A DNA stretch of 49,175 nucleotides, filler included, from Jimgerdemannia flammicorona (taxonomy: Eukaryota): assembly GCA_003990765.1 (NCBI GenBank). It is 2 parts of 2 records of this genome, joined end to end, with 100 filler letters (N's around TTAATTAATTAA, not from the genome) between each part and the next. Parts side by side here need not be neighbours in the genome. Positions count along the whole stretch, not along the records: positions 24,639 to 49,175 come from RBNJ01000963.1; 1 more part is not named here. One strand, written 5' to 3'. The notes beneath the pieces were generated by a model. It saw nothing but the letters and a program-made list of their open reading frames with translations. It made no database searches and was not told the origin of the DNA. Of the stretch, positions 998 through 47,571 are shown piece after piece. The position numbers were made by a program, and so were the translations under genes. Numbering within the stretch: the stretch's first letter is position 1; each line of letters starts with the position of its first letter.

Positions 998-1007
998 GAT
1001 TCTAAAA

Positions 1008-3302
1008 CTCTTCTACCTCATTACTTTTGAGAGTAATGGTGAATTGGGCTTCTGTAGCCACTATGGCCTCTAGTACATTCATATGACAGACTGACAATTT
1101 CTTAAAGTCTGAGACTCTGGTATACTCTAAGTTAGAGATTGACCAAGATGTATACCTAAAGACCTAATGGAACTTTTTAGCTATCCTCAATTCATATACA
1201 TATATCTATAGGGGTGGTATCTTGTATCTCCTGGAGACAGGTCTGAGAGAATTTCTAGCAAAGGAGGTTTCCTATTTTATATTCCTGCTATATCCAGGGG
1301 CATTTGGTACCAGTAGTGATCCTTGTCTCTATTTTATAATAGTAGAAGATAAAGTGATAAGAGTTACCAGTATCCAGGTTAAGGCTATAAATCCTTCTGG
1401 TATAGATCCTCATGGCTCTCCTATGTCTTGGAATATTCTTTCTTAAACTGAGAATTCTTGGTGGTTTCTGGACCTTGAGGTTTGGCAAATAGTAGGCATT
1501 TGTTTATAGTGAGTCTTTTGAACTATTTTGGGATTTTGTGAGTCTTGTTTGAGTTGCTGCTGCTGCAGTTTCTTGGTCCTTCTTATATTTCTTGAGATAT
1601 CTATCTTGTAGTCATTATGACTTATACTAGATGAGTTATATTATATAATCTTCTTATGTTCTGATCTGATAGCTTATAAGAAAAGGCTATCTTCTGTGAT
1701 AATGTCACCATTCTAAGATTACTATTATATCTTTCTCCTAAATAAGAATCTTCTCTTGAATATCCTTATTCATTGGTTCAGTCTGAAAAGTTTTCTGATC
1801 CCATAACCTCTAGTAGGGGGTCAAAAAGTAGTATTTATGGGCTAGTGTTTTCCTTATATATTTTGGCACAATGGTGGAGGATCACTCCCTTTATATAGAG
1901 TAAGGGCCTGATTCTGATCTTGATCAATCAGTTGATAGTTCAAACTCCTTGACTTCAAAAGTCTCATAGAAGAGTAGTTACTGATACTATATCTCTTAGA
2001 GAATGATCCAGACAGATTGTCTGCTGGTCACAGGACATGCTGTTATGATTCATAGACTAGAACCTCATAGATGGTCATTATATTTTACTTCTCTTATATA
2101 TGTTCATAGTACTTCTTAAGTCTGTTCCTATATACCATAGTAGGCAGTATAGTCTCTGAGAGTTTTCTAAGCCAGAAGGCAGTTCCCTTAATATCTTACA
2201 CATAGAAGAGTTCTTCCCATTTAGGCTCCAGTTTTCATAACCACAAGGCTTCTACTATATTTCAATATAGTAAAACCTTTTCTCCAATTTGAATGGGTTT
2301 TAGGGTCTTGTGATTCTTTTCTACATTCTTTCTTATTAGTACTTGTAACTTGATGTAATCTTCTGCCTTCTTCTTGATTTGGTATAGTCTCCAGATTTCT
2401 GAGTCAATCTATCACTAAGTTAGGTCTAGATTTATGGCTGAGGTTTCATCAGAATCTTCTTCTCCAAAGAGCAGTTCTCTTGAGATAAAGTATATACTCT
2501 GTGACTATATATCTTGTAGGATGGAGAGGACAGTTAAGGGATAGTTATCCCAATTCTCATATGTGTCTGAGATCTTGCTCAGAATGTTCTTGAGAGTCTT
2601 ATTGGTTCTTTCTGTCTGTCCATTTCCTTAAGAGTAATATACAGTAGTCTTGATATGCTGAATCTTGTATTTCTGATATATTATCTCATAAAATCTGTTG
2701 ACAAATTCTGTACCACAGTCTGTGGTGATTTGCCTTGGTGTCTTATAGCAGTAGATGATTTCTCAGTATAGGAAGTCAGTAATAGAGAGAGTATTGGCTT
2801 CTTGTAATACTCCTGCTTCTATCTATTTAGTAAAGAGATTTACAATAACTATAATATAATAGTTTCCTGATAGAGTTACTGGTAGTGGTCTAATGATATC
2901 TATTGCAATGTGGTAAAAGGGGATAGGTTTGATTCTTGATCATCTGGATGCCTGATCTTACTGATCTTATTTCTGTTTTTTGGCACTTATCATACTCTTT
3001 GACAAATTGGCACAGGTCTTCTTCTATCTTAGACCACTATATAATTCTTCTTACCTTGTCATATATATTGATTTCTCTTAAGTATCCTTATTTGTATACT
3101 TCCTTCATTACTTAATACTTCTTATATTTGGATATAATAAGCTTTTCTTCTTTTCTGAGTATAGTTTTGTCTAGTTTGAATTGTTTTCAAGTCTGGTTGA
3201 TAATAGTGATAGTCTAGGGTTCAAGATGGTTGAGCATCTTCTACTACCCAAGATAGCTAATTAATCCATAGTATAGCTCCTTATTTATATTAAATAGTCT
3301 TG
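1008..3302 (-). mobile_element. Truncated, more decayed copy of the Gypsy-1 family (integrase, 3' internal region, partial LTR with ORF3)
   Basis: Seen: colinear similarity to 14946-17247 (e.g. tcttctacctcattacttttgagagtaatgg vs tcttctacttcttcactattgagagtaatag). LTR boundary at about 1729; differences are mostly transitions. Confidence 0.9.
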
Positions 3303-13591: not shown

Positions 13592-14128
13592 TGTTGAAAT
13601 TTCTATTATTTTAATATCTTAATAATATGACTTATATATCTATAACTATGTCATCTTTGAGTTATATTTCTTAATACATAAATATATATTATCTAGAATA
13701 ATAAATAATACTCTTCTGCTCTTCTCCTCTACTCCTTACTCTACTAAGTTATAATAAAGATTATAAGCCCCACTTAGTAGCTAATAAGAAATATTTCTCT
13801 AAAACTCTATATTAAGATATTGATATAGATGAACTAAGGAACCAGTATGAGTATACCAAATATAGCAGATGTGGGTACTTCTGTAATGGGTACAATGGTC
13901 ACTATTTTTATAGTAAACATAAATATAGCCAAGAGATTGATTTCTATCTTTGATAATAAGAACTATGTCATTTGGATATTCTATATAAGTAATTTTCTAA
14001 AGGAGTACAGCTTAGTAGAGTATATGAAATTACAAATATAGATGCAAGATTACAATATTACAAATGATCACTAAGTATTATAAGAGATTATCTTTATATT
14101 ATTGAACTAACAAATAAAGCTTATATAT

Positions 14129-15675
14129 TGTCACATAGTGGTCACTGAGTCCTTAAAATATGCCAGATTCTCTTCAAGGTATATCTCTTAGACTAACTCA
14201 AGTTTGTTATAAGCAAGTTCTTATTGGAGTACCTTCCCAAGGTCTTATAGTCCTCAAACTTCTTATCTTTAACTGTCTTGTTATCTCTTAGATTGCTTGC
14301 AAGGAAGTATATATAAGTGAAACCAGAACTAACTTTATTTCAGAGGAAATAAGAGGGATATTTATACAAAATACAATTCAATGGTTGCTAAGATATAAAG
14401 CTAAATATAAATTCCAATAACTAAAACTACTAAGTTCCAGAGTCGGTACTGATGGTTGTACAGGTTTAGGATACTGGCATTATTTAGTGTCACATAAAAA
14501 TGCCAGTGCTGGAACAATTTTGCATCACCTCAGAATACCAGTACTGGTATTATCTAGTGTTACATGAGAATACCAGTGCTGGTATTATCCAGTGTAACAC
14601 AGAACTTAGAGCAGAAAGTTCAGGACCATGGGAGCTTCATCATCATCATCACTGAAGGAGATGAGATCTGCAAATTCATCATATAGGTCACGCATTTTGC
14701 GTACTTTGCATGTTTCAGGTATATCATATGGGATGATGTCATCAATGACATCATCACATTCAGCTGTGGTGGGGAAATCGGGGACAAGGTCTGGAGCTCT
14801 CCAGTCTATGAGGTTCTTTTCCACAAAATAAGGAACAAATGTGGGGTCTTGGAGAGATCTAACCCAGATGCTTGGGCCTTAGAATACTGAGATCAATCCT
14901 TGTAGGAATTGGTCTGGGTTGTCCTGAAGGATAGGGTGCCAGAAGTCTTCTACTTCTTCACTATTGAGAGTAATAGTGGACCAGGCTTCTATAGCCACCC
15001 TGGCTTCTAGTGCATTGATATGGTAGAATGATAGGTCTTTGAAGTCTGAGACTCTAACATACCCCAAGTTGGGGATCAACCATGGTGCATGCCTGAAGAT
15101 CTGATGGATCTTCTTAGCTGTCCTTGTTTCATATATATCTATGGGAGTGGCATCTTATAGCTCTTGGGTGCTGGTTTGTAGGAACTCCTGGCAGAGGAGG
15201 TTTCCTATTTCGTACTCCTGCCATATTTGGAGACATTCAGTAGCAATAGTGATCCTTGTTTCCATTTCACAGCAGTAGAGAATGAAGTAATAAGGGTCTG
15301 CAGTACCCAGGTTGACACTAGGAGTCCTTCTTGAGTGGGTCCTCATGGCTCTTCTGATGTCTTGGAACATCCTTTCCTCGACCGAGATACCTTAGTGATT
15401 CCTTGACCTTGAGGTTTGGTAGGCAGCAGGTATTTCGTTTGTAGTAAGTCTTTGAGCTATTTTGGGATTGGTGGTTCTTGTTGGTTGCTGCTACTGCAGT
15501 TCCTTGATCCTTCTTTAATATTCTTCAGGATGCTTTTACTGTGGTCACAATGACTCACAGTTGGTCATCATTGCTCATCTCATATGATGTATGATCTTCT
15601 TGTGCTTCAATCTGATGGCTTACAAGGAAAGGCTGTCTCTGGTGCTAATGTCATTATTCTGGGGTCACCATTACA
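14129..15675 (-). repeat. Gypsy-1 3' LTR
   Basis: Seen: TGT...ACA termini; direct repeat of 21373-22918; internal ~32-bp repeats at 14440-14605. Confidence 0.95.
14606..15433 (-). pseudogene. ORF3 copy in the 3' LTR (ORF pieces 15155..15370, 14879..15079 and 14606..14824 are in one frame)
   Basis: Seen: a single frame broken by TAA stops that are consistent with C>T; acidic C-terminus EKNLIDW...DDDDE. Confidence 0.7.
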
Positions 15676-15987
15676 TCTTCCTCCTAAATAAGGATCTTCC
15701 TGAGTGTCCTTATTTATTGGTCCAGTCTTGAAAAATTTGCTGATCCCATAACCTCTGGCAAGGGGTTGAAAACTGGTGTTTATGGGCTGGCATCTTCCCT
15801 TTGTATTTTGGCATGATGGTGAAGGGTCACTCCCTTCATATAGAGCAAGGGCCTGATTCTGATCTTGACCAATCAGTTGATGGTTTAACTCCTCTGACTT
15901 CAAAAGTCTCATGGATGAGTAGTTGCCAGTGCCATATCTCTTAGAGAATGGTCCAGACAGATAGCCTGCTGGTCATGAGATATGCTG

Positions 15988-17234
15988 TTATGATTCGCAG
16001 ACTATAACCTCATGGGTGGTCATTATATTTTGTTTCCCTTATATAGGTTCATGGTACTTCTTGAGTCTGTTCCTATGTACTGTGGTAGACAGTATGGTCC
16101 CTGAGATTTTTCTAAGCCAGAAGGTAGTTTTCTTGATATCTTGTATATAGAAGGGTCCTTCCCATTTGGGCTCCAGTTTTCATGACTATGAGGCTTTTAC
16201 CATATTTCGATACATAGAACCTTTTCTCTGATTCAGATGGGTTCTAGGGCCTTATGATTCTTTTCCGCATTCTTCCTTGTCAGTGCTTGTGACTTGGTGA
16301 TATAATCTTCAGCCTTCTTTCTGATTTGGTGTAGTCTCCGGATTTCTGCATCAACCTGTCTCCAAGTTAGGTCTAGATTTGTGGCTGAGGTTCCATCAGA
16401 ATCTTCTTCTCCAAAGAGCAGCTCTCTTGGAGTAAAATGTGTGCTCTGTGACCATATATCTCATAGAATAGAGAGGGCAGTTGGGAGATAGTTATCCCAA
16501 TTCTCATATGTCTCTGAGATCTTTGCTAGGATGTTCTTGAGAGTCTTGTTGGTTCTCTCTGTCTGTCCATTTCCTTGAGGGTGGTATGTGGTGGTCTTGA
16601 TGTGCTGGATCTTGTATTTCTGATACATTATCTCATAGAATCCATTGACAAATTCTGTACTGTGGTCTGTTGTGATTTGCTTTGGTGTCTTGTAGTGGCA
16701 GATGATTTCTTGGTGTAGGAAGTCAGCTATAGAGAGGGCATTGGCTTCTTGTAATGCTCCTGCCTCTATCCATTTGGTGAAGAGGTCTACAATAACTATA
16801 ATATAGCAGTTTCCTGATAGTATTACTGGTAGTAGTCCAATGATATCCATTGCAATGTGGTGGAAGGGAATAGGCTCAATTATTGATGATCTGGGTGCCT
16901 GGTCTTGCTGATCTTGTTTCTGTTTTTGGCACTTGTCATACCCTTTGACAAATTGGCACAGGTCTTCTTCTATCTTGAGCCACTACATGGTTCTTCTTGC
17001 CTTATCGTATATATTGGTTCCTCCTAAGTATCCTTGCTCATGTACTTCCTTCATTACTTGATACTTCTTGTGTTCAGGTATTACTAGCTTTCCTCCTTTT
17101 CTGAGTGTAGTGTTGTCTAATTCAAACTATTTCCAAGTCTGGTTAATGATAGTGATTGTCCAGGGTTCAAGGTGGTTGGGCATCTTCTGCTATCCAAGGT
17201 AGCTGATTAATACATAGTATAGCTCCTTATTCAT
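15988..17234 (-). pseudogene. Gypsy-1 integrase in its own ORF (HHCC, DDE core, GPF C-terminus, no chromodomain seen)
   Basis: Seen: ATG at 17234, 25 nt after the RNaseH stop and in a different frame; MDIIGLLP...VDLFTKWIEA...TTDHSTEF...YHPQGNGQTERTN; KLEPKWEGPF; one frameshift near 16215. Confidence 0.88.
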
Positions 17235-17259
17235 GTTGAGTAGTCTTGATGGGAGTGTT

Positions 17260-20200
17260 TCAGGGTGTCCTTGAGAGTGCATCAGTATTGGTGTTGGTCT
17301 TTCCTGAGTGGTGCTTGACAGTACAGTAATACTCTTACAGCCTGTAGATCTATCTGGCATATATTCCTTTGGGGTTCAGAGTGTAGAATAGCCAGGCAAA
17401 AGCAGAATGGTCCGTTTGAATAGTGAAGTGTTTTCTGACTAGGTAGTAGTGGAACTTGTCTACTGCCCAAACTACCACTAAGCATTCAAGCTTATATGAC
17501 TCATAGTTCTGTTCCACTCTGTGGGTACCTCAGCTTACATAGGAGATGACATATTCATGTCTATCTTTCTTCTGAGCTAGGACTGCTCCAAGTTCTATAG
17601 TACTTGCATCTGTCTGCAGGATGAATTCTAGGTTCCAGTCTGGTCTTCTGAGAATGGGTGCTTGGGTCAATCTGGTCTTGAGTTCATTGAAGGTTTCTTG
17701 GTGCTCCTTGGTCCATTCAAATTTGGTCTCCTTCTTCAGTAGCTCATAGATAGGTGCTGCAATGTTGGAGTATCCTTTGATGAATCTTCTGTAGTAGCTG
17801 GACAGTCCAAGGAAGGCATAGACTTCTGTAGTTGTTCTGGGTCTTGGGTAGGCTGCAAAAGTCTTGATCTTCATGGGGTCTCTGTGGATTCCAGTCTGGT
17901 TGATGAGGTGTCCTAGGTAGGCAATTTCTTGAGCTGCAAACTTGCATTTCTTAGGCTTGATATAGAGGCCATGCTCCTTGAGCCTCTTGAGGGCTAGCTG
18001 TATGTGATTGACATATTCCTGTGTAGTGTTGCTGAAGATGATCACATCATCAACATAGACAAAGAGCTATTTTCCAATCTCATTGCTGAAGACTTTATTC
18101 ATCATTCACTGGAAACTTGCTGGGGCATTGCACATTCCAAATGGTATTCGCAGATAGATATAGGTAGCATCAGATGTGATGAAGGCTGATTTCTCACTGA
18201 CATCTTAAGTGAGACCGATCTGATGGAAGTCTGAGAACAGATCAAAGGTGGTGTAGTATTTGGCTTCACTTCCAAGGGTGGTAAGAATTTCTTGAATATT
18301 TGGCAAGGGCTGTCTATTCTTCTTGGTGATGGCATTGAGTTTCCTGTAGTCAATACAGAGTCTTGGTGCAAACTCTCCAGGCTTGCTTCCTTTCTTCGGA
18401 GCAAGGACAATGGGTGAGGCCCAGGGGCTGATAGCTTGCTTGATGATCCCGGCTTCTTCTATTTCCTTGAGTTCGGCTCACAGCCACTCTCTGTAGGCAG
18501 GTGGTATGGGTCTGGCTTTCTGATAGATAGACTTGGTATCACCAGTGTCAACTTCATGGTAGTACTTGGGTTCTTGATTGTGGATATTCCTAAAGTCTGT
18601 AGCAAGTACTTCTTTGTTCTGGTACAGGATCTTGAGAAGTTGTTCCTCTAGGGGAAAGTTTTCTCCAATGATATATGTGTGCTTGTTCTGGTCCTTGTCT
18701 TTCTTGTGCTCAAGTTTAGTAATCTTGGTAGTGGTATAGGCTCCTCTTCCAGTAGATCCAAAGCCTTGTTCTTCTCTCTTGATCTTGATAAGTTCAGTGG
18801 CTTCTATGATCTTGGGCTTCTTGATTTTGTGGATCAGCATCTGGCCAATCCTGTCATACTTCTTGACTTCGAAGGGGGTGGTGTGTTTGTGATTTCTGAC
18901 TATGAGAAAAATCTTGCCAGTGTAATCAGGGTCAATTACTCCTCCTTCAACTGAGATTTTGCTTTTGGCCAGACTACTCCTGGTCTTGATAATTCTGGTA
19001 TGGTTTTCTGGCAACTTGACTCCAATTCCAGTGCCAAGTAGGATAGTGGTCTGTGGTTTGAGGGTAGCATTTTGGATGCTGGCAAGGTCTATTCCTATGG
19101 CTCCTTCAGTCTTGTATTCTGGGATCTTGGCTTCAGAGTGAAACTTCTTGACCTTGAGGGTGATGTCTGATTCTTGTTCCTCCTCATTGTCACTGTCAGC
19201 TTGAAGCTCTGGGGGCTGGTCATCTTCTTCAGCTTTCCTTTTTGCTTCAGCAGCTTCTTGCTTGTGTTTCTGTTGGTGGATTTTCCTGACTTCACTGATA
19301 CAGGACCAGCAGTCATTCAGGTGTTCAGAGCAGTATATTCTAGTACCATGGGGGCATCTTCCTTGAGGGACATACCCATCAATGATCTTGTTATACCACT
19401 GCTCATCTGTGAGCTTGAATGTCTTGTTCTTATTCTTATTCACCAAGTACATGAAGACCTCTGTGTCTTCTTCATCTCCTTCCTTCATGTCTGGCAGAAC
19501 TCCTTTGTAGACATTGATAGAAACTCATACCTTTCTTCCTCTATAGTTGATCTGCATCTTCTGGGCATTGAGGTCAATGATGGCCTTGGCCTTGTGAAGC
19601 CATTGGTTGCCAATAAGGATGTCATAGTTGGTGGTGCTTGTAACAATCACGTCTACTAGGATGATAGCTCCTCTTATCTTAATGGGGACTTCTTGGATTT
19701 TGCCAAGGGGGGTAGCTCGTATACCATCTGCTATAATATAGACCATTTTGGTGGACTCCTCAATGTCCCAACCTAGGCAGTCAATTGCCTTCTTGCTTAT
19801 GAGGCATCCTCCAGCACCAGTATCAATGATGGCATCAAAGATACAGTCTTCGATCTAGCAGAGGATATAGGCTAATGTCTTGTGCTGGTCTTCGGATTCT
19901 TCATCTGAGTTCTCAGATTCTTCTTGTGCATTGTGAGCTTCTATGATCTTGTACTCTTGATTCTTAGCAGTAGTTATAAGTTCTACTCTTAACTGCTGTC
20001 TGAAGGCAGGGACTTCAGCTAGCTGCCCAAAAGTGGCATTGACCTTCTGTTCTTTGAGATCCTTGTAGATGTCATACTGGTGGATCTTGGTCTTGTGCAG
20101 CTTCTGTTCCTTCTTGCTCTCGCTTTCTCCTGAGACTGGAGTAGTGCCTTCGATAATTTGGCACACAGCTTTGTCTAACTCCCTGTCTTGATCAATCTCC

Positions 20201-21291
20201 TTGGGTTGGGTCTTGCTTTGAATAGTGACAGCTGGAGTCTTCTTTGGTCTTCCAACTGGCTTGCTGTTGCTCTTCTTGTCATAGGGCTTGGACCAGGTTC
20301 TGGTACCTTCAGTAGCAGGGTAGAATTCAAGCTCTTCATAGTATTCTTCATCATCAGTATCACTGACCTCCTCAATGACTACTGCATTGGTTTGTTCTCT
20401 GGTTCTGCTAGTATTGCTTGGTTGGGCTTTGCATCTCATTTTGGTCATGCAACTCTTTACATAGCAGCCTTCTTCTCCACATCTGAAGCATGTGATATTG
20501 TGTTCTTCTGTAGCAGCTGCAAATCTCTGCACTGGTCTCCTGTTGGCGCTTCAGACTTCTCTAACAACATCACTGAGGTGTGCAGTCATCTTGGTGAACT
20601 GCTTGGTAAGTTCTTCCACTGGGTCAGCTTTGGCTGTCTTGGGGGTAGGTGGGGTTGGTTGTCTGTTTACAACTGTGGCAGGTAAGATACTAGTTGGCTT
20701 TGATGGCTCCATCTTGATGCCAGTTATTTTCTCCATTGAGTGTTCAGCAGGGTGTCTGGCAGTCCAATATCTCTGTGCAAAGACCACTTTCTGATCAAGG
20801 GTCAGTACAGCTGGGGTAGACCAGATTGCTAGGGCAATTTCAGAGTAAACTCCTTTGAGGAAGGTTGAATCCACTATTTGTTCCTTGAGGGCATCATCAT
20901 AGCCAGCCAAGACAATCTGGTGGCAGATTCGGTTATAGAATAAGTTGGGATCTTCACTAAGTTCTTGGCAGATAGTATTGAGTTGATCTTTGAGAGCTTG
21001 CTTGATCTCTTCGGTATAATATGTTGTTCTGAGGAAGGTCTTCATGTTGGTAAGTTTGACTGCATCAGCACCAGCAATAGTGACTGCATTAAACTTGTCT
21101 CTGGCAGGTCCTCTGAGGCTAACTGGTAGAAGGGCCAATTGAGCATCCACACCAAGGGCTCGTACAGTGGCGAATTGTTCAAAGTTTTCAATGAAGGTCA
21201 GGATTGACTCTTTAGTAGTATATTCATAGAATGTGGGGGGATGCATTTCCATCTTATCTTGAATTCTTGCAGGGGTGACTCTTGTAGTCAA
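17260..21291 (-). pseudogene. gag-pol: Gypsy-1 Gag-Pol (capsid, CCHC knuckle, aspartic protease, dUTPase, RT, RNaseH) in one frame with in-frame stops
   Basis: Seen: ORFs 20551..21291, 19855..20532, 19525..19746, 18478..19488 and 17530..18045 are all in frame; motifs CFRCGEEG, IIDTGA, RLCIDYRKLN, YVDD, LQTDAS, TDALSRTP*. Confidence 0.93.
18749..19164 (-). CDS. dut: Trimeric dUTPase domain within Gypsy-1 Pol
   Basis: Seen: dUTPase motifs I-V: AIGIDL, TRSSLA, GGVIDPDYTGKI, DRIGQM, REEQGFGSTG. Confidence 0.92.
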
Positions 21292-21372
21292 AGTAGTTGT
21301 TGTGGGAGTTGTTTGTTTTTCAGCTTGAAAGTGAGGGATTCATCTTGAATCACCAGCCAATGGGTACCAAGT

Positions 21373-22918
21373 TATCACATGTGGTTGCTGAGTCCTTCAA
21401 ATATGCCAGATTCTCTTCAAGGTATATCTCTTAGACTAACTCAAGTTTGTTATAAGCAAGTTCTTATTGGAGTGCCTTCCCAAGATCTTATAGTCCTCAA
21501 ACTTCTTATCTTTAACTGTCTTGTTATCTCTTAGATTGCTTGCAAGGAAGTGTGTATAAGTGAAACCAGAACTGACTTTATTTCAGAGGAAATAAGAGAG
21601 GTATTTATATAAAATACAATTCAATGGTTACTAAGATATAAAGCTAAATATAAATTCCAATAACTAAAACTACTAAGTTCCAGAGTCGGTACTGATAGTT
21701 GTACAGGTTCAGGATGCTGGTATTATTTAGTGTCACATCAAAATGCTGGTGCTGGAACAATTTCACATCATCTCAGAATACTGGTGCTGGCATTATCCAG
21801 TGTTACATGAGAATACTGGTGTTGGCATTATCCAGTATAATACAGAACTTAGAGCAGAAAGTTCAAGACCATGGGAGCTTCATCATCATCATCACTGAAG
21901 GAGATGAGATCTGCAAATTTGTCATGTAGGTTGCATGTTTCACATACTTCGCATGCTTCAGGTATGTTATACAGGATGATGTCATTGATGATGTCATCAC
22001 GTTCAGCTGTGGCGGGGAAATCAGGGACAAGGTCTGGAGCTCTCCAGTCTATGAGGTTCTCTTCTATAAAATAAGGAACAAATGTGGGGTCTTGGGGAGA
22101 TCTAACCCAGATGCTTGGGCCTTAGAATACTGAGATCAATCCTTGCAGGAATTGGTCTGGGTTGTCCTGAAGGATAGGGTGCCAGAAGTCTTCTACTTCT
22201 TCACTGTTGAGGGTGATAGTAGACTGGGCTTCTGTAGCCACCCTGGCTTCTAGTGCATTGATACAGCAGAATGATAGGTCTCTGAAGTCTGAGACTCTAA
22301 CATACTCCAAGTTGGGGATCGACCATAGTGCATGCCTGAAGATCTGATGGATCTTCTTAGCTGTCCTTGTTTCATATATATCTATGGGAGTGGCATCTTG
22401 TAGCTCTTGGGTGCTGGCTTGTGGGAACTCCTGGTAGAGAAGATTTCCTATTTTGTACTCCTGCCACATTTGGAGGCATTCGGTAGCAATAGTAATTCTT
22501 GTTTCCATTTCACAACAGTAGAGAATGAAGTGGTAAGGGTCTGCAGTACCCAGGTTGACACTAGGAGTCCTTCTTGAGTGGGTCCTCATGGCTCTTCTGA
22601 TGTCTTGGAACATCCTTTCCTTGACTGAGATACCTTGGTGATTCCTTGACCTTGAGGTTTGGCAGGCAGCAGGCATTTCATTTGTGGTAAGTCTTTGAGC
22701 TATTTTGGGATTGGTGGTTCTTGTTAGTTGCTGCTACTGCAGTTCCTTGATCCTTCTTTTATATTCTTCAGGATGCTTGTACTGTGGTCACAATGACTCA
22801 CAGTTGGTCATCATTGCTTATCTTGTATGATGTATGATCTTCTTGTACTCCGATCTGGTGGCTTGCAAGGAAAGGCTGTCTCTGGTGCTGATGTCATCAT
22901 TCTGGGGTCACCATTACA
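21373..22918 (-). repeat. Gypsy-1 5' LTR
   Basis: Seen: direct repeat of 14129-15675; left end reads TATCAC (TG>TA mutated). Confidence 0.95.
22122..22676 (-). CDS. ORF3 (184 aa open, unknown function) inside the 5' LTR
   Basis: Seen: uninterrupted 184-codon ORF, conserved in the other LTR and in the 1008-1500 copy; resembles the Gypsy-2 ORF at 45724-46239. Confidence 0.7.
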   Translation of the reverse strand: MPAACQTSRSRNHQGISVKERMFQDIRRAMRTHSRRTPSVNLGTADPYHFILYCCEMETRITIATECLQMWQEYKIGNLLYQEFPQASTQELQDATPIDIYETRTAKKIHQIFRHALWSIPNLEYVRVSDFRDLSFCCINALEARVATEAQSTITLNSEEVEDFWHPILQDNPDQFLQGLISVF

Positions 22919-28972: not shown

Positions 28973-28979
28973 AGCCGCT

Positions 28980-30860: not shown

Positions 30861-30899
30861 TGCCGATAGCGGAATTTCATCATCGCCAAACTGGGGAAG

Positions 30900-33640: not shown

Positions 33641-33699
33641 GGGCTTCGATCGTGGGCTTGCCCGACTCGCACTTGAACGCGCCATCATCCTCCCGAAAC

Positions 33700-33930: not shown

Positions 33931-34390
33931 CTCAACGGCGACCACGACCTCGATGCCATCCCCTGGGAGTACGCTTGGGGAAACAACACGCCTCTGTCGA
34001 ATAATGCGGAGCTGAAAAACCATGGGCATTTGACCAACAAGTTCGTTTACAGACAGAAGATTCCTCAATTATCGGAACTTCAGCGACTTCCACTGCGCAT
34101 AGTCACCGTCGTACCGGACCCCATCATCCCGCCGAGCGATCCCAACGCGAACCAATTTCCATATGTGATGCATACGAGAAAAATAATCGAGCGTTATTAC
34201 TGCAGCCGACCGTCGACCAAATATACGAGTTGCTTAGGAGAAATCCTGAGATGGCCACGGTGCTTCATTTCATGGGACACTGTAGATCGCAGAACAACGG
34301 TGCGAGGGCACTCATCTTTGAAGATCAAGATACAGGCGGCCCCGACTTCGCTGATGCGTTGCACCTTAAGCGTTTCTGTCTGCCTGTAGA
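33931..34390 (+). pseudogene. N-terminal half of a CHAT domain, in inverted orientation
   Basis: Seen: LDAIPWEYAW, PLRIVTVVPDP, PTVDQIYELL, VLHFMGHC (catalytic His motif), ALIFED; ends at AT-rich relic DNA. Confidence 0.8.
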
Positions 34391-37423: not shown

Positions 37424-38711
37424 TGTAACAAATCAAGACATACTACCCAAATTATACCTTAGCCAGATAATATGAACAATTAGCCAAGATGATGTAAATA
37501 CATAGTATAGTAACTGACAACCATTGCTGTAGAAAACCATATAAATAGCCAGACATATCAGAATGGGTCTGTTTATCTGTACAGACTCTGTACACTGTAC
37601 AGACTACTGTATAGATTCTGTACACTATACAGACTCTATATATCTACCATAAGTAGCAAACTTATAATTAGCTATATAGCAACTAGATAGCAACCAACTT
37701 ATATAAATTACTCCAGAGACAAGAGTGAATAAACCTCAGTCCAAAAGTTGAATACAAACTAAAGCAAAAGTCAATTGTCTGGTACACTTAGGAGAAATAT
37801 CTGCCAAAAGCCACTTGATCTAGAAAGAATTGCAATACTTAGGAGATACACCTGCCAATGAGCTACTGCCAAGAAGTTATGAGCTTGGTTCTCTTCTCTT
37901 CCACTCCAGTCCACTTTCTAATATAAAGAACAAGTCTGTTTTTAGTTCACTTGCCAGATAAGCCTGAAGATTTGTTGCTCAAGTTCAAGGAAGAACTTCA
38001 CCACCATTTCTCAGAAGACTGCTAATTCAGGAAGAATCCACATTATCCACCATTTTTGAGTTATCCACATTTTCAGAGAACCCATGCCATCTAAGTAGTA
38101 TTTCCAGTTGAAGTCAAACCTGCAACATCTGAGTTATCTGAGTTATCCAAATTATCCACTGTCAAGTTATTCATTATTCCCAGTGAGTCCGAGAAGAACT
38201 TGCAACCAGTATAATTCCCAGCAAACCATCCCAGGAAGAACTCACACTATCCTCTATTTCCAGTGAGCCAAATTGAGTTATCTGCCAGAAATCGCATACT
38301 TTTGGAGATCATCACACTATACAGAGATCGCCCATCACTCAAGAAGGAGAACTGCTAAATTGCTAGACCATTATACAGAGATCATTACACTATACAAATT
38401 GTAGTATTCTCAGTTGACCCAAATAAGAAACTTGTTGTGCTATATATGAATTCTACCAATTTCCAGTTGATCCAAGAAGGAAATCCATTTACACCCAAAT
38501 CACCCCTATATCCAGAGAACCATCCCAATTAGAAAATCAACATACAAATCACTTGCAGATATCTAACTTTGACTATTATACCACTAAACACCAAGGACCT
38601 CAGAAATCTTAAAATATTTTATTGCTTTTGGACAAAGTAACTGAGGGCTCAAGCCAAACTACATCAACCCCCAACCTTGTAATTTGCCTCCATTGAGCTA
38701 GGTATATTACA
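37424..38711 (+). repeat. Gypsy-2 5' LTR
   Basis: Seen: direct repeat of 46279-47571; internal TGTACAGACTC tandem repeats. Confidence 0.95.
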
Positions 38712-38949
38712 TTTGAGGACTCAACTGGGAACATTTCAAAATTGATGTGACTTTTCAGCTCACAAGAACTCATAGTCAAACTGGATACATTTGATACAAT
38801 ACCAACCTCTACTACTACAGGAGAACCAGTTATCACCAGCATCTGGACAGAAAGAGAAGTAATTACATCAAGACTTACCAACTACCCAGCATCAGAAGAT
38901 TCCCAACCAGAAGGCAGTACAGCCTGAAATCTTCAATCAGATCAATCAG

Positions 38950-41900
38950 ACAATATAGGCAGCCCTGCTAAAGATTTCAAAGAACTTGTACAAAAACTAG
39001 AAGATTTTATCACATGAACCCAAGACCTTACAACTAGATACCCCATATCAGTTCCACTAATCTCACCAATAGAATCTTTACCACAACCCCTTGCAGAGTT
39101 AGAAGTAGCTCCTATAAGAATACTTAGGCTTATTCTACTTTGTCTGAGGTCCAGAACACCATCCTCAAGATACCCAAGCACCCACATCTCCAGTGACAAT
39201 TCAGAAAGTGAATCAGAATCAGAGTCCAAACCAGAACTAGAATCAGAAGAAAGTGATGATGAAATAGCCACCTTACTGCCAACCTTTGCAGAATACCCAG
39301 AGGAAGACTCCAGAGAATTTCTTGATAGAATTGAAGGAATTGCAGCCTTGAGGAATCTCTCAGATGAAAGAAAAATCACCATCTATAAGGCTCAGCTTAG
39401 AGAACCAGCTAGAGGAATTTTCCATTGAATAGTAAATAACCCAGATTCAGAACTAGTGAGACAGATATAAGCAGCAATGCCTTATGAGCTAGAATATGAG
39501 GCCATGGTCCACTGGCTTATTGAAAAGTATGCAGGAAATGAAACCCACCATAAGGCTCAAGAATCCATCATGGGGATGAAGATAAATCTCAGAGAATCAC
39601 TCAGAGCCTTCTTCACAAGAATTCAGAAGAGAATACATGCTGCCAGGTTCAATGCCACCAACCAGGACATCATAGGTCCAATGACCTTCATGAATGGAAT
39701 TCCCCCAAACATTGTCCAGTATATCCACACCCTAGGTATTAAAAGGTCCAAAGAGCAAGTGGATATAGCCCAAGGATTCTTCGATGTCAGACAAGGAACT
39801 ACCTAGAGTGATCATGATAAGAAAAAAGATAAAGAAGACATCCTGGTCAAAGCCCTACAAGGACTCCTTCAAGGACAAGAAAGATCTGAAGAAAGAAGGC
39901 CAGCCAAGAAAGGAAAGAAGGACAGAAGTGAAATCTAAGACCTTAGCTCCAAGTTGGACCAATTGGTTGGATAGATTGAAAAACTCACTACACACAAAAA
40001 TTGGGGCTACCAAGATAACAGAGGATACCCATTACAGAGGAGCCAAGGTTATCCACCAAGAGATAACAGAAATTATCAGCAAGAAGAAAGAAGATATCCA
40101 GTCCAAGACAGAGCCCAAGTCCAATGCTTTCACTGTAGACAATTCAGGTACTATGCTACTGAATGTGACAACAAAAGAAGTAACCAAAGGAACTCAGAAT
40201 CATCAAACCAAAGGAATGACACCCAGTACAAGAAGACTGAAGCCCATCCTGTTAAATATTTTGAGGAAGTAAGTAACAGTGAAGACTACAGTGACCTAGA
40301 CTTACATATACCCTACTAAGGTCACTACCCAGAAAACAGTCTATCCAGTGGAGAAAAGAAAGAGATCTGTAGGAAGACCATCCAGGAATGTCAGCAGAAG
40401 AGTTATCCAAGAGGAAGATGAAGAACATGAGGAAGAACAAGTAGAAACACCTCTCCAAACTCCCTCACCTTTTGTCCCTGAGACAAATAAGTTGCCACCA
40501 GAAGATGAAGAAATGGAACAAGAAGAACAGGAACCTGCTGCCCCAAAGTCAAAGAAGAAATACACTCTGAAGACTATGCCTAGAGACATTTACAATGAAG
40601 CCTGGCAGAAGATTCAAGAAGCCAAGATGAAAGTTCCTCTCCTGCAGTTCCTGTAACTAATACCAGCTGGAGTCCAAAACAAATTATTGAGAACAACCAG
40701 GTCCAGCACTGGCCAAGTTCCAATCCAGCAAGAACCAGTTCCCATCTCTGTCCAAGCAGCCAAAAGGTATGTCAGCACCTATCTATATAGAGATATTGGA
40801 GGACAAAAGGTGAAGATCCTCATAGATACAGGAGCAGCTATCTGTGTCATTGCCAAGTGATTCTTGGACACCCTCCAATGGCCCATTGATGGACCATCCA
40901 ACCTCAGTATCATAGTAGCAGATAGAGCCCAAACTCAACCCTTTGGAGAAGTATGAAATATCACCATCTCTCTTGGATACATTCAGTTCTCTATCCCCAA
41001 AGCTGTTGACACAGGAGCTATCACCTATGACATAATTCTTAGCACCAACTGGATAAAGGAAATGAATACAGTTGTTGATATCAGTCAACAAGTACTCAAG
41101 TTTGACTACTAAGGCAAGAAGTACAGAGTTAAGATGACCAGCTATGAGCAATCAATGAAGAAGAAGAAGGTCACTATTCAGGAGGAATATGCCAGCAGTG
41201 AAGAATCTACTACAGAGGAAGAAGAAGAATCTGAAGATGAAAATGATTCCAGACTCAATCTTTGAATTAACCTGGTGGATGACAGACCAGAAGACAATGT
41301 GTGGGCCAAGAACACTATCCCCATCACCATTGGAGCTATTGCAGGGGAAATCAAAGGATGCTCTATCTGCCTCAAGAGACACAATTGTCCCAAGCATTTC
41401 TCCAAGATCATGGGAACAAGGAAATCACCTGGTACAGCCTGTCCAGAGTGCAGAAAAAAGAAGAAGAAATGCAGACATGTCCTAGAAACACCTGCAACCA
41501 AAGCTGCAGAGGTGCAAGCAATTTGGGGTCAAGAATTATCTAAAAAAGAAGAAACTTCTGACCAAGAAGTTCCTGAGCAAGAAGCACCCAAAGAAGAAGA
41601 GGTCCCCAAACTCATTCCCTGGGATAACCCTTGCTAGACACTATCTGAAGATAATGACTCTTGGAATATAGAAGAAGGACCCAGTACAATCACTGTTATC
41701 CCAAAGAAAGAAACTCACCAAGAAAAGGCTTTTAGGCTAGAAAGATGTCCACACTAAATGGTCTTTCACTCTCCTCAAGACTACTGCTATCAGTACCATT
41801 TACTAGACCAATAGGAGAGATAGAGACCCCAGAGACCAGAACCCTCAAATATACTTATACAGTTAACTACCTTCCAAGAAGTTACCACTAAGTTGCAAAG

Positions 41901-44663
41901 CTGATTCAGGGGACAAGGCTTCTTCACCCAGACAGAAATATATCCCTTGTCTACTCTTCCACCCACTTATGACTAAGATGAGTACCAATTCCCAAAACAA
42001 TAAGAGATCAATAACTGGGAACATTACTTCTGAGCAATGGGATATTGCAACCATGGAAGACACCCAGACTGCCAAGACTGCAGGCATCAGAAGATCTATC
42101 TCAGTTATGATGTTGTAGTTCACACCTTGAAGAGAGAAGATAACTAAAGCTAGATCTAAAAAAGTCAGACCAAAAAGCCAGGAAGGAGGACCCTCAAGAT
42201 CTATGATTTAGGAGAAGATATCCTAACCCTCATCAGATATGCAATCCACCAAGGATGGGCAGAAGATGCCACCAACTTCATGGAAACCCTTGACCCTATA
42301 GAAAGAAGGGGAATCAACTATCTCCAAGACCCCTCTACTGGAGCTAGATGGCCACACCTCAACCTTAGAGCTTGGAGGCTCTCCACTAGTGGAGCTTCAG
42401 CCTTAGGAAAGCCTGAACTCAGTAAGGACATTGCCCAGTATGCCCTGCTGCACCCCAAGGCCAAACCCCTGACCAAAGCCCACCCAGAGGATGTAGGATA
42501 TGATCTTCACAGTCTGGAGGATGAATTCATCAAGCCTGGAAAGACCTTTATGATCAGAACTGGACAAGCCATGCAGCCACCTCAAGGAACTTACATACAA
42601 CTGACCTCAAGGTCTGGATTGGCCAGACAAGGAATAACTGTGGAAGGAGGAACCATTGACCCAGGATATATAGGTGAAATCAAGGTTATCCTATACAACA
42701 GCAGTACAGAATGGCACCAAATCATTAGAGGACAGAAGATTGCCCAAGCAGTCTTCATGAAGGTCAAGACCCCACAGTTACAAGAAGTCTCTGAACTAAC
42801 TGAAGGAACAAGATAAGCCAAGGGATTTGGAAGTTCAGACAGGAAGAAAGTACATCTCCTTCAAGTCAACCACCTCAAGAGGAATATTCCCCAGCAAGTG
42901 TACTGGCAACCAGTCAGACTACACAAGAATCTCATCCTGAAGTCTAGAGAACAAACTACCTTCAAAATCTTTGCACCACCTGACCCCAGAAATCTTTTCT
43001 TCAAACCCAAGGAAGATATCCCACACCTGGATATAGAGGGACATACATTCCCTGACAAGATGAATCCAGTATACTCCTGAGCAACCAACCAAAGTTGGGA
43101 GACCATCATCTTGCCAAAAGGAACCATCATAGGACATCTGATGCCTTTTCTCAACTGAACTCATAGAGAAGTTTATGAACTAAACCTATCAGGAAATGAC
43201 AAAAGGTCCCAGAAGAAAGGTAAGGCCCCTCTGCGACCCAGGAGACAGTGAAGCCTTCCACCAATATTGGAGAAGAATTGACACCTCAACAATAGCAACA
43301 ACTAGTAGAACTTCTCAACAAATATCAAGATATCTTCACCACTGATTATGGCAACCTGCCATACAACCCATTATATCACTACAGCATAAATACAGGAAAT
43401 GCAACACCCATCCAGCAGAAGCCCTATAGAATACCCCATCACTTGAAAACATTTGAAAAGGAGTACATTCAAGAACTTTTAGACAATGAAGTCATCCGAC
43501 CCTTTACCAGCCCTTGGACCAGCCCTATACTTATTGTATCAAAGAAAGGAGGATAGAGACTTTGTGTAGATTACAGGAAACTCAATTCAGTCACTGAAAA
43601 GGATGCCTACCCTTTGCCCAGAATTGATGACCTTTTGGACCAGTTACAAGGTGTCAGATACTTCAGCAGTATGGACCTCTTTACAGAATTCCATGAGATC
43701 CCCATAGACTCCAAGGACATTTAAAAGACAGCCTTCCTTGCTCTGGGAAAACTATTTGAATACCTCCAAATGCCCTATGGACTCTGCAATACACTCTCCA
43801 CCTTTCAGAGGATGATGAATTCGGTCTATGCCCTCTTGATCTACCACTGTCTGATTGTATATATGGATGATTCCAACATCTATTCAGCAAATTTTGAAGA
43901 ACACCTACACTATCTAGAGGAATTCTTCAAGCTCACCTGCAAGAACCACTTGAGATTGGATGCAAAGAAATGCTACTTTGGGAAACAGAATCTTGAATTC
44001 CTTGGATTCATAGTTTCAAAAGAAGGAACCCATGCAGACCCAAAGAAAACTGAGAAGATCAACAATTGGCCAATACCCAAGACTCCAAAGGAAATACTAT
44101 CATTTCTGATGCTAGTATCCTACTATAGAAGGTTTATCAAGGACTTTGTCCAAATCGCTGCCCCAATCCAAATCCTTCTCAAGAAAGGAGTACCATTTAA
44201 GTAGACGAAATTACAAGAAACAGCCTTCTAAGAACTCAAGAACTGCATGACTATAGCACTAATTCTTATGTGCCCCAATCTACAGAAGCCATTCATCTTA
44301 TATATAGATGCTTCCAAAGATGGCCTTGGAGCAGTTCTAGCCCAAGAAGGACCTAACCAACAACACTATGTGATAGCTTATATAAGTAGAGCTACCAATC
44401 AGCAGTAGATGAATTATGGTAGCACCAAACTGGAGTGTCTTGCAGTCATATGAGCAGTCACCCTGTTAAAGCATTACCTCATTAGAAAAAGGTTCACTCT
44501 GATCACAGACCATGTAGCTCTCAAATGGCTATTCAATCACAAGGAACCCACTAGAATCCTAGTCTGCTGGATCCTTATTCTTCAGGATTACAAAATCACC
44601 ATCATCCACAAAGCAGAGAAAGCTCACAACAATGTTGATGTACTTTTCCACCAGCCCCAATAA
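38950..44663 (+). pseudogene. gag-pol: Gypsy-2 Gag-Pol (capsid, knuckle, protease, Cys-rich spacer, dUTPase, RT, RNaseH)
   Basis: Seen: LPTFAEYPEEDSREFLDRIE, CFHCRQFRYYATEC, ILIDTGA, LCVDYRKLN, MPYGLCN, YMDD, YIDASKDGLGAVL, HNNVDVLFHQPQ*. Start position approximate. Confidence 0.92.
42435..42840 (+). CDS. dut: dUTPase domain within Gypsy-2 Pol (one stop near motif V)
   Basis: Seen: DVGYDL, SRSGLA, GGTIDPGYIGEI, GQKIAQAV, R*AKGFGSS. Confidence 0.92.
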
Positions 44664-45727
44664 ATCAGAGGAAGGGTGTCTCAAGGAACTATACTCTAAA
44701 GGAAGTCCCTGTGACCATCAAGGAATAAGAAGATCTCATCTGACAAGAACACCAGAAGGCCCACCAAGGACAGACGAATGTAGAAGAGAAGCTGTGAACA
44801 ATATACCAACATTGGTCCAACCTTAGAACACAAGTCCAAGATATCATTCAGAAATGTGACATCTGCCAGAAGTATCAAGGGAAGAAGAACTATCAAGCCC
44901 CTCTGCAACCAATTCCCCCACCTACTCACATCTTTCAAAGATGGGGAATAGATGTAATTGGACCTCTACCAGTTACACCAAGAAGAAATAAATACATTCT
45001 TATATTTGTGGAACATCTGACCAAATGGCCTGAGGCCTTTCCAATGGAAATTTCAGATGCCTTAACCATTGTAGGTCTCCTCCATGAACTCACACTCCAA
45101 TATGGACCCCCAGAAGAACTCATCTCTGACCGAGGCACAGAATTTATCAACAATATAATCATAAGTTATGCTTGAATTCACAAGATCCACCTCAAATAAA
45201 CCACATCATATTACCCTCAAACCAATAGTATGACAGAAAGAATGAACCAGACCATCAAGAAAGAACTTGCCCGAGTCAATCCTACCAACTGGGACCTCTG
45301 CTTACCTGAGATCCTATGGGAAATTTGGAATACCCCTGCTGTCTCCACCAAACAAAAGCCATTCAAAATAATGTTTGACAAGAAAACCAGAACTGCTGAC
45401 CATGAGAATCTTGGAGATCTCTTCAAGAAGGTGGAACAGTTATGTAATCAAGCCCAAGATCAGATTATCAAAGCCTAAGAAAGACAAAAGAAGTACTATA
45501 ACCAAAAACAGAAGGATTAGAAGATTAAGATTGGAGATCAAGTACTAGTATGGAGAAGTATAATTGAAATAAATTTTGCTGCCAAACTGGAACCCAAATG
45601 GAAAGGACCTTATCTTGTACATAATATCAGAGGAACCAGCATCTATTTAAGAAGTATGGATAGATGAACCCTGAGAACACCAGTACATATTAATCATCTC
45701 AAACTATACTTTCCCTCTACACCATGA
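44660..45727 (+). pseudogene. Gypsy-2 integrase in its own frame
   Basis: Seen: one frame from 44660 to the stop at 45725-45727; HQKAH...CDIC, WGIDVIGPLP, ISDRGTEF, TERMNQTIK, KLEPKWKGPY; no chromodomain seen. Confidence 0.9.
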
Positions 45728-46239
45728 GTTAAAGGATTGATCAGTGCCTCCAGACATTAGTCCTCAGCTCCTTCCAAGCCCTGCTAGTTCCTCTACTCCA
45801 ATTTGGCCAAGCTAATGGAAACCCCCTTCAGAGCATCCAAGTTCATCAAGAAAATCTCACCCTGGCCAGGTGCCTACTACAAATCCACCAACTGCAGGCC
45901 TATTATGCAATTGGTGAACAATTGCAGAACCTTCCAGCTCTAGAGCAGACCTACATCAGGAACACCACCAGTCTGACCAGAAGAGACACTACCACTGCAG
46001 ACAGACTATACACCATTTACAAACAAAATATCACAGCTCTGACACAGACACAGTTCTCCCTGAATGACATTCAAGGAATGAATCCTACTACCTATTTGAG
46101 TCTCATCAATATTGTCGAAATCCTATTCCCTGAAGAAGAAGAAGAGCTCATAGAATGGAGTGACCCTAGCACAGACAATGAAGATGATAGAATAGGTATA
46201 GATGCAGAAGCAGTCTATGCTTATTGGGATGATGACTGA
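45724..46239 (+). CDS. Gypsy-2 ORF3 (~171 codons, one early TAA), unknown function
   Basis: Seen: ATG at 45724 overlaps the integrase TGA; in frame with ORF 45922..46239; acidic tail; ends just before the PPT. Confidence 0.72.
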
Positions 46240-46278
46240 AGAACAGTCTGGGACAGACTATCCTTCAGTGGGGGCTGA

Positions 46279-47571
46279 TGTAACAAACCAAGACATACTA
46301 CCCAAATTATACCTTAGCCAGATGACACAAACAATTGGCCAAGATAACATGAATACATAGTATAATAACCAGCAATCATTGCTGCAGAAAACCATATAAA
46401 TAGCCAGACATATCAGAATGGGTCTGTTTACCTATACAGACTCTGTATACTGTACAGACTCTGTATACTATATAGGTCCTATACACTATACAGGCTCTGT
46501 ACACCTGCCATAAGTAGTAAACCTATAATTAGCCATATAGTAACTAGATAGCAACCAACTTGTATAAATTACCCCAGAGACAAGAGTGAATAAACCTCAG
46601 TCTAAAAGTTGAATACAAACTAAAGAAAAAGTCAATTGTCTGGTATACTTAGGAGAAATGTCTGCCAAAAGCCACTTGATCTAGGAAGGATTGAAACACT
46701 TAGGAGATACACCTGCCAATGAGCTACTGCCAAGAAGTTGTGAGCTTGGTTCTCTTCTCTTCCACTCTAGTCCACTTTCTGATACAAAGAATGAGTCCAT
46801 TTTTGGTTTGCTTGCCAGATAAGCCTGATGATTTGCTTCTCAAGTTTAAGGAAGAACTTTGCCACCATTTCCCAGAAGACTGCTGATTCAGGAAGAATCT
46901 GCATCATCTGCCATTTTTGAGTTACTGTATTTCCAGAGAACCTGTGCCATCTGAGTAGTATTCTCAGTTGAAGCTGAACCTGTAATATCTGAGTTATCTA
47001 AGTTATCCAAATTATCTGCTACCAAGTTATTTGTTGTTCCCAGTGAGCCCAAGAAGAACTCACCACCAGTATAATTTCCAGCAAACCATCTCAGGAAGAA
47101 CTCATGCCATCCTCTATTCCCAGTGAGCCAAATTGAGTTATCTGCCAGAAATCGCATACTTTTGGAGATCATTGTACTACACAGAGATTGCCCATCACTT
47201 AAGAAGAAGAACTGTTAAATTGCCAGACCATTACACAGAGATCATTGTGCTACACAAATTGTGGTATTCCCAGTTGACCCAAATAAGGAATCTGTCATGC
47301 TACACATGAATTCTACCAATTCCCAGTTGACCTAAGAAGGAAATCCATTTACACCCAAATCGCCACTACACCCAGAGAACCATCCCAATTAGGAAATTGA
47401 CATATAAATCACTCACAGATATCCAGCTTTGACTATTATATCACTAAACACCAAAGACCTCAGGAATCTTAGAATATTTTGTTGCTTTTTAACAAAGTAA
47501 CTAGAGGCTTAAGCCAAACTACATTAATCCCCAACTTTGTAATTTGCCTCCATTGAGTCAGACACATTACA
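46279..47571 (+). repeat. Gypsy-2 3' LTR
   Basis: Seen: direct repeat of 37424-38711. Confidence 0.95.

Follow-up and report, generated by a model that had tools for sequence, protein, structure and literature searches.

Extra reading frames of two dUTPase-bearing Gypsy retrotransposons in Jimgerdemannia flammicorona: probable accessory genes that may share an origin

Two decayed Gypsy retrotransposons of Jimgerdemannia flammicorona (assembly GCA_003990765.1) each carry an extra open reading frame (ORF), here called ORF3, which raises the question of whether these frames are genes and whether one is related to the other. Both elements lie in the window, by which we mean the whole stretch of 49,175 nucleotides (nt) that was analysed. 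A first-pass annotation had proposed that the two elements, Gypsy-1 and Gypsy-2, share a conserved protein family encoded downstream of integrase. We found that Gypsy-2 ORF3 and its counterpart in the long terminal repeats (LTRs) of Gypsy-1 are very probably genuine accessory genes, restricted to their lineages, of fungal Ty3/Gypsy retrotransposons that bear a dUTPase. Our overall explanation, to which we assign a probability of roughly 0.6, is that these are genuine 3′ accessory genes with a probable common origin, and that their products are candidates for an RNA or nucleoprotein adaptor.

Gypsy-2 ORF3 occupies 45724..46239 on the plus strand and comprises 171 codons, from an ATG at 45724-45726 to a TGA at 46237-46239, as read by translation and by comparison with the relatives P0001-P0005 and P0010-P0014. 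Its sole in-frame break is a TAA at codon 3 (45730-45732), where the relatives have Q. The integrase that precedes it (44798..45727, plus strand) contains internal stops and was recognised by the Pfam families rve, Integrase_H2C2 and MLVIN_C and by alignment to the pol of a metagenome contig, L001. The pol frame ends ...HLKLYFPSTP with a TGA at 45725-45727. On the other side of ORF3 a polypurine-like tract (GTGGGGGCTGA, 46268..46278, plus strand) stands directly 5′ of the 3′ LTR, which was delimited by self-BLAST and motif reading (46279..47557, plus strand, starting TGTAAC) and begins 39 bases past the end of ORF3. Since ORF3 is followed by the polypurine tract and then by the 3′ LTR, it is internal to the element. 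An extra ORF downstream of the Gypsy-2 integrase, as the first-pass annotation had it, is present, with one in-frame stop and with intact relatives.

The Gypsy-1 counterpart, from which the annotation had quoted peptides, was found in a frame of the Gypsy-1 LTR. This frame extends from LTR nt 243 to 1070, wholly within the 1,547/1,548-nt LTR and downstream of the polypurine tract, so that the 5′ and 3′ LTR each hold a copy. The copy in the 5′ LTR (21849..22676, minus strand; relatives P0006-P0009) has 275 codons, an intact ATG and a TAA at codon 185. The copy in the 3′ LTR (14606..15433, minus strand) starts with ATA and has stops at codons 14, 93 and 185. Upstream of ORF3, and adjoining the 3′ LTR, lies the polypurine tract (AGGAGGAAGA region, 15676..15688, minus strand). 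The AT-rich last third of both LTRs retains TATATAAA (LTR nt 1308) and AATAAA (nt 1337). Judged by these motifs Gypsy-1 ORF3 would lie in U3 and hence in the 3′-terminal part of the genomic RNA. Thus, of the proposal that both elements carry an extra ORF downstream of integrase, the reality of both ORFs stands, but the Gypsy-1 ORF is borne by the LTR and is not internal.

Sequence searches with a single ORF as query covered 5.8 billion clusters, and searches with a profile covered 1.84 billion representatives at E <= 0.001. With Gypsy-2 ORF3 as query five relatives were found (E 1e-69 to 2e-17), and the four Gypsy-2-type relatives that covered at least 80% of the query were 54-78% identical. 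The Gypsy-2-type profile gave six matches, five at E <= 1e-10 and P0014 at 3.7e-4; with P0005 common to both searches, this makes ten distinct relatives. P0014 is a divergent member, and a search with P0014 alone returned only itself. Full-length members have a common start, M-T/N/I-Q-R-I-D, and a common end, ...Y-W-D/N-D-D. The Gypsy-1 ORF3 query returned four relatives of 174-271 amino acids (aa) that were 77-93% identical. When Pfam was run on the window ORFs and nine intact relatives we obtained sub-threshold chance matches only, a sequence search of the PDB with ORF3 gave one match at E 0.51 and no relative, and IMG/VR scans returned no relative. Neither an ORF3 protein nor a fungal Gypsy element with an ORF embedded in its LTR was found described in full-text literature searches, although Repbase-type libraries or the supplement of PMC2864245 could hold one. 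The ORF3 families are narrow and unnamed.

The contig L001 (4101 nt) contains an almost intact dUTPase-RT-RNaseH-IN region (RT, reverse transcriptase; IN, integrase) and then ORF3 in the -1 frame. It carries a P0004-like ORF3 as far as codon 83, and its junction reads ATAA, so that the pol stop is retained and the ORF3 start is lost. A position 3′ of a Gypsy integrase, which the annotation had proposed as a check on hits from a profile search, is thus repeated outside the window. Together with intact relatives for both ORF3 types, this gene order upholds the claim of a conserved accessory gene.

We considered that the ORFs might be open by accident in 3′ or U3 sequence that codes for nothing, and that the relatives might be gene-caller artefacts on repeat copies. 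Such an origin would suit relatives that lie on short contigs (787-1625 nt, save two of 11.8 and 13.1 kb) and bear no functional names. However, the frames are open over 171-183 and 215-271 codons and have fixed ends, although between copies the proteins are 54-58% identical. Because long frames with fixed ends persist across copies this divergent, we take both ORF3 types to be real element genes. Conservation within each type is uneven, some blocks being invariant and a linker variable, and the Gypsy-2 frame has one stop in 171 codons, whereas pol is broken into pieces of 48-159 codons; both observations argue against an accidental origin.

Ratios of substitution rates were less informative. 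Transitions make up nearly all differences between paired LTRs (109 of 113 for Gypsy-1, 144 of 151 for Gypsy-2). Comparison of Gypsy-1 ORF3 between its two LTRs, where the copies diverged once inserted and are expected to be neutral, gave an omega (dN/dS) of 0.38 (Fisher p 4e-4; Nei-Gojobori) because LTR divergence is of this kind. When a third, truncated Gypsy-1-like copy in the window was used for comparison, omega was 0.32-0.43 for ORF3 and 0.35 for an integrase control, indistinguishable from the baseline of 0.38. The dN/dS check proposed in the annotation thus could not demonstrate purifying selection within the window, and we rejected within-window dN/dS as evidence of selection, transition bias being able to mimic it. 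Against L001, Gypsy-2 ORF3 gave a pN of 0.26 and a pS of 0.81 over 83 codons; pS is saturated, and therefore only pN/pS = 0.32 can be quoted. The pol of Gypsy-2 compared with L001 had an omega of 0.07-0.13 in seven of eight segments and 0.34 in one, and the non-synonymous rate of ORF3 was several times faster than that of pol. Selection on ORF3 is better argued from preserved frames than from ratios.

Several observations that weigh against our explanation can be gathered here. The dN/dS within the window is that of the neutral baseline. The same TAA stands at codon 185 in both Gypsy-1 LTR copies, where the relatives read Q, and judging from this identity the stop was most likely already present at insertion, so that the Gypsy-1 copy would have transposed with a truncated ORF3. 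If the stop does predate insertion, this suggests that the full Gypsy-1 ORF3 protein was not needed in cis. Finally, the TATA and poly(A) assignments on which the U3 placement draws are motif matches in AT-rich DNA. The first two points would be at home in the accidental-frame account, which is opposed by a pN well below pS against L001 and by the preserved frames. We consider accidental frames very improbable, and the reading of both ORF3s as accessory genes is retained.

The transition bias has a likely source. The ratio of observed to expected CpG was 0.03 at 38698-46278 and 0.09 at 15676-21371, compared with 1.03 in the gene-bearing region 25000-34000. TpA was not enriched in the retrotransposons (observed/expected 0.74-0.75). 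Classical repeat-induced point mutation was ruled out, TpA being without enrichment while CpG is nearly absent; from base composition the pattern looks like methylation-driven deamination of CpG in repeats. This carries a practical warning, as transition-only, CpG-poor repeats make simple dN/dS on decayed copies mimic purifying selection.

At the junction between pol and ORF3 in Gypsy-2, the pol stop and the ORF3 start overlap as ATGA at 45724-45727. The residue after the Met is T, N, I or S in nine of the ten Gypsy-2-type relatives or copies that have an N-terminus; codons for T, N and I necessarily begin with A, and the S codon of the window is AGT. A residue that varies while its codon begins with A fits a pol TGA kept over the ORF3 ATG, and selection may have kept the two overlapped. 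P0014 is the exception and a point on the other side, having Met-Ala at the ATGA-compatible position.

How would ORF3 be translated from such a junction? One answer is that it is a C-terminal extension of Pol, produced by -1 frameshifting in an overlap of 45-50 codons and serving as a targeting domain that replaces a chromodomain. ORF3 is indeed in the -1 frame relative to pol, and its frame is open upstream of the start, overlapping the end of integrase, over 51 codons in L001 and 41 in P0010. In the window three stops lie in this overlap (45570-45727), and they fall at the positions of Q, W and H/Q codons of the relatives, and no chromodomain was found after integrase. However, the sole X XXY YYZ site in the window overlap (45571) is absent from L001, leaving no shared slippery heptamer, the Met sits exactly at the pol stop in nine of ten sequences, and by a rough estimate chance would leave some 50 codons open in several percent of cases. 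We therefore regard a Pol-ORF3 fusion as improbable. Stop-restart translation at AUGA or UAAUG occurs in fungal RNA viruses, namely victoriviruses and the hypovirus CHV1, which live in fungal hosts and, like Gypsy-2 with its ATGA, have the stop of a long upstream ORF overlapping the start of the next. Unlike Gypsy-2 these are double-stranded or single-stranded RNA viruses. Because AUGA stop-restart is familiar from victoriviruses, we favour over a fusion that Gypsy-2 ORF3 is translated either through termination-reinitiation once pol has ended or from a subgenomic RNA that starts nearby, and would put the odds of this at about even.

Do the two ORF3 types descend from one gene? For these comparisons an X stood for each stop of a broken frame, with neither stop reversion nor a consensus. 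A core of about 55 residues came out in one register by Smith-Waterman, BLASTP, hhalign and eye, running in Gypsy-2 from ...LLQ.HQLQAYYAIG.QL... to ...AADRLYTLYK and in Gypsy-1 from ...CLQMWQEYEIGNLL... to ...TAKKIHQIFR. The Smith-Waterman score of the window Gypsy-2 ORF3 against the 5′-LTR copy had a z of 4.2 and was reached by 2 of 1000 shuffles, whereas against the 3′-LTR copy z was 1.65 and 73 of 1000 shuffles reached the score. Fifteen pairs of intact relatives gave z from -0.47 to 5.05; the score was reached by at most 5 of 500 shuffles for three of the pairs and by at most 25 of 500 for eight. BLASTP of the divergent member P0014 against P0007, a single comparison, gave E 0.013 in the same register.

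Comparison of the family profiles by hhalign gave P 0.0046 with a probability of 7.6% (5 versus 5 sequences) and P 0.0091 with a probability of 4.4% (10 versus 5 sequences). When the Gypsy-1 alignment was column-shuffled 300 times the mean score was 13.5 (standard deviation 2.5, maximum 22.7), and the observed 24.5 was reached by none of the 300. The reversed Gypsy-1 alignment scored 17.0. Predicted helices in the aligned part also fall in a similar order, long, short and medium, at residues 34-69, 72-81 and 86-109 in the Gypsy-2 type and 47-83, 89-95 and 100-113 in the Gypsy-1 type, the latter being taken from a poor AlphaFold model (mean predicted local distance difference test, pLDDT, 35).

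The alternative is that the two ORF3s are unrelated, by independent capture or de novo origin, and that the likeness of the core reflects chance together with helical, acidic composition. Much of the evidence tells in this direction and against a single family. The hhalign probability is 4-8%, and the Gypsy-2-type profile found no Gypsy-1-type protein among the 1.84 billion representatives at E <= 0.001. Seven of the 15 intact pairs were not significant, nor was the 3′-LTR copy. The C-terminal halves were not significantly similar in nine pairs (z -0.95 to 2.47, with 21-883 of 1000 shuffles reaching the score), and tblastx of Gypsy-1 against Gypsy-2 left the ORF3 regions without a match at E <= 10. 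The gag products of both elements, likewise read with X at stops, had a z of 13 against 500 shuffles, far above the -0.5 to 5 of ORF3. The ORFs differ in length (171 versus 275 codons) and in position relative to the polypurine tract. In addition, shuffle nulls are lenient for helical proteins. An unrelated origin is opposed by the failure of all 300 column shuffles to reach the observed score and by the lower score of the reversed profile, by the identical register obtained with P0014, and by the same orientation, the same place after integrase in two related elements and the similar order of helices. Weighing the P of about 0.005-0.01 from a comparison specified in advance against the lenient nulls, we lean slightly towards the view that both proteins come from one ancestral ORF3 through the helical core; an unrelated origin is a serious contender that falls somewhat short of an even chance.

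The homology claims of the first-pass annotation thus survive in part. Its alignment by eye had the core in the register that was reproduced here, but the match it drew between EEELIEW and EKNLIDW and that between the tails were not significant. In the pairwise shuffle test it called for, the 5′-LTR copy and eight of the 15 intact pairs stood out from shuffled sequences and the others did not, and the single ORF3 family it proposed has the column shuffles in its favour and the hhalign probability and the profile search against it.

We then compared the properties of the proteins. Over the last 40 residues the net charge is -16 to -18 in the near-full-length relatives P0001, P0002 and P0004, -7 in P0014, and -10 to -11 in three Gypsy-1-type relatives, which bears out the acidic tails that had been noted on both products. 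The Gypsy-2-type tail is strongly acidic and closes with conserved aromatic-acidic motifs. The Gypsy-1 type ends ...DLISF.DDDDEAP.ILNFLL and starts with an arginine-rich stretch, with a net charge of +5 to +8 over the first 40 residues in two of three proteins. No membrane-like segment was found in seven intact relatives (best 19-residue Kyte-Doolittle mean 0.48-1.17, none near 1.6), and no Pfam env family matched ORF3 at E <= 1. Pfam scans of ORF3 and of C-terminal pieces of integrase gave no chromodomain. The earlier view that the protein is neither a typical env nor a chromodomain is consistent with these results.

The AlphaFold model of the Gypsy-2 family is helical, as had been anticipated, with a mean pLDDT of 64.6 and values of 74-82 over residues 31-130 except for one dip to 58. 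It has six helices in total: an N-terminal helix at 7-18 is followed by a proline-rich linker, then by a core of five helices and a tail that is disordered. Taken with the charges, this suggests that each ORF3 would be a small, all-helical protein of the cytosol or nucleus whose C-terminal tail is strongly acidic.

The structural check suggested by the annotation, AlphaFold followed by Foldseek, therefore yielded a helical model for the Gypsy-2 type but no matching fold, and the rest of the structural evidence counts against the overall explanation. The Gypsy-1 family model, with a pLDDT of 35.4, was unusable. Foldseek of the ORF3 model found nothing in PDB or BFVD at E <= 0.001, and among the 48,161 chains compared by VIA-align the highest Z was 4.5, none reaching 5. 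Helix-turn-helix chains of VirB, SopB, ParB and KorB had VIA Z of 3.5-4.1 over 74-88 residues within 55-142 of the model, and Spo0J ranked 28th by Foldseek with E 1.6; both are in the noise range. The HIV-1 Rev assembly domain had VIA Z of 3.9 and 3.7, far below the level that is meaningful for helical proteins with this tool. No ESM Atlas score reached 0.9, and the matches below 0.9 common to both lists, an unnamed 105-aa cluster and a closterovirus coat cluster, are a lead only.

What might such a protein do? On the genomic RNA both ORF3 genes would stand at the 3′ end. The Gypsy-2 gene lies between integrase and the polypurine tract, whereas in Gypsy-1 the tract is upstream of the gene, which would thus be part of U3 and be copied into both LTRs. 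By analogy, the role we rank first, though in absolute terms it is unlikely, is a nuclear adaptor acting on the RNA or nucleoprotein of the element itself and resembling the CERV or Rev class. Such an adaptor would combine a helical binding domain with an acidic, aromatic tail that recruits partners and, in the Gypsy-1 type, an arginine-rich N-terminus. Ranked next is a factor for integration tethering or transactivation that might work through the acidic tail. A fuller scenario, in which an ancient Rev- or CERV-like gene was shared by both elements, was absorbed into U3 in one branch when the polypurine tract shifted and became coupled through AUGA in the other, is quite unlikely. If absorption into U3 were true, every LTR, solo LTRs included, would carry a protein-coding gene.

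Extra ORFs are common in LTR retrotransposons, but to our knowledge a role is established for hardly any of them, and descriptions of fungal ones are very few. Genes in or overlapping U3 of a retroviral LTR are represented by sag of mouse mammary tumour virus and nef of HIV. Like Gypsy-1 ORF3 these are frames 3′ of the polypurine tract, in U3 and duplicated in both LTRs, but they belong to vertebrate retroviruses and their proteins are unrelated to Gypsy-1 ORF3. They are the closest parallel in structure to Gypsy-1 that we know of. We know of no fungal example of a gene embedded in U3.

Fungal Gypsy elements with a dUTPase between protease and RT are in print, such as PosPlaTy3-5 of Postia placenta (PMC2864245), whose order of protease, dUTPase and RT is common to both window elements, and dUTPase-bearing elements occur in Tuber and Phanerochaete (PMC2864245, PMC6431247). 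Tmt1 of Tuber is described as chromodomain-bearing (PMC12581995), whereas no chromodomain was detected in the window elements. Some fungal elements carry an 'additional ORF of unknown function' (PMC2864245). Gypsy-2 ORF3 resembles these in position, orientation, lack of a recognisable domain and conservation within the family, being a sense additional ORF placed after pol and before the 3′ LTR; the Gypsy-1 ORF does not have this placement, lying in the LTR and not in the internal region. Both were likened by description. In view of such elements, the 'undescribed lineage' of the first-pass annotation is too strong a term.

Outside this group, CERV of the Caenorhabditis elegans Gypsy element Cer1 is an accessory factor needed for nuclear export of the genomic RNA (PMC10309623). 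Like ORF3 it is an accessory factor of an LTR retrotransposon and not an env, but it has 517 aa, is translated from a spliced mRNA and is joined to coding sequence from upstream (PMC10309623), whereas the ORF3s have 171-275 aa; the analogy is one of description. The gene brtn of Boty/BcGypsy1 in Botrytis cinerea is antisense to gag-pol (PMC7264820, bioRxiv 10.1101/2021.04.13.439636), whereas both ORF3s are sense. The ORF3s belong among the additional ORFs of retrotransposons, known as a kind, and what is notable is their anatomy, an LTR-borne gene and an ATGA junction. The window thus gives two conserved, unnamed protein families, one whose start is fused to the pol stop and one apparently embedded in U3. 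If homologous, the pair would document an LTR boundary moving across a gene, and the ORF3s would be a tractable candidate for a regulatory factor encoded by retrotransposons in fungi.

The two elements themselves were delimited from self-BLAST of the window, TG..CA ends, polypurine tracts and empty-site copies. Gypsy-2 (37424..47557, plus strand) is decayed and has an LTR at each end (37424-38697 and 46279-47557), 87.7% identical over 1281 nt. Both LTRs open with TGTAAC, close with TTACA, and have TATAAA at nt 117 and AATAAA at nt 305/311. Gypsy-1 (14128..22918, minus strand), also decayed, was recognised from its LTR pair, an uninterrupted target copy and Pfam pol domains. Its LTRs (14128-15675 and 21372-22918; 1,548 and 1,547 nt) are 92.7% identical over 1550 nt, both start TGTAATGG, and the purine run AGGAGGAAGA precedes the 3′ one. 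Uninterrupted copies of AT-rich target repeats, both inverted, lie at 3816-4594 (the Gypsy-2 target) and 11257-13245 (the Gypsy-1 target). Because these serve as empty sites they fix the insertion bounds of both elements, and they place both within an older repeat family. The third Gypsy-1-like copy (1006..3302, minus strand) is truncated and retains integrase and the first ~230 codons of the ORF3 frame; it is 80.65% identical to 14943-17248 and is cut off at 1006.

We found the same Pfam order in both elements, protease, dUTPase, RT, RNase H and integrase, for an overall gag-PR-dUTPase-RT-RNaseH-IN arrangement (PR, protease). The dUTPase domain of Gypsy-2 (PF00692; 42160..42816, plus strand) lies between protease and RT and matched at E 8.8e-25, that of Gypsy-1 at 1.6e-26, and matches to RVT_1, RT_RNaseH and rve then follow in order. 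Both are therefore dUTPase-bearing fungal Ty3/Gypsy elements, as annotated. With tblastx the two share 39% identity over 239 aa of RT, 42% over 101 aa of RNase H and 39-47% in pieces of integrase, and from these values they are distant relatives of each other. Their LTRs had been called unrelated, and no nucleotide similarity between them was seen in the self-BLAST of the window. In the 3′ copy of Gypsy-1 the pol frame (15607-15972, minus strand) stays open for ~95 codons past a GPY/F-like integrase motif; the last 22 of these codons lie inside the LTR, and the tail contains no Pfam domain.

Other features were noted elsewhere in the window. A run of N at about 24590-24640 appears as X in translations of both strands. 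Arrays of a 33-nt tandem repeat at 4648-4918 and 10153-10383 are mutually inverted. At 28907-30070 there are four to five copies of a direct repeat of ~182 nt, 64-89% identical, whose translations resemble leucine-rich-repeat units. These adjoin ORFs at ~29.9-31.7 kb that, from reading of their translations, are ankyrin-like and NTPase-like.

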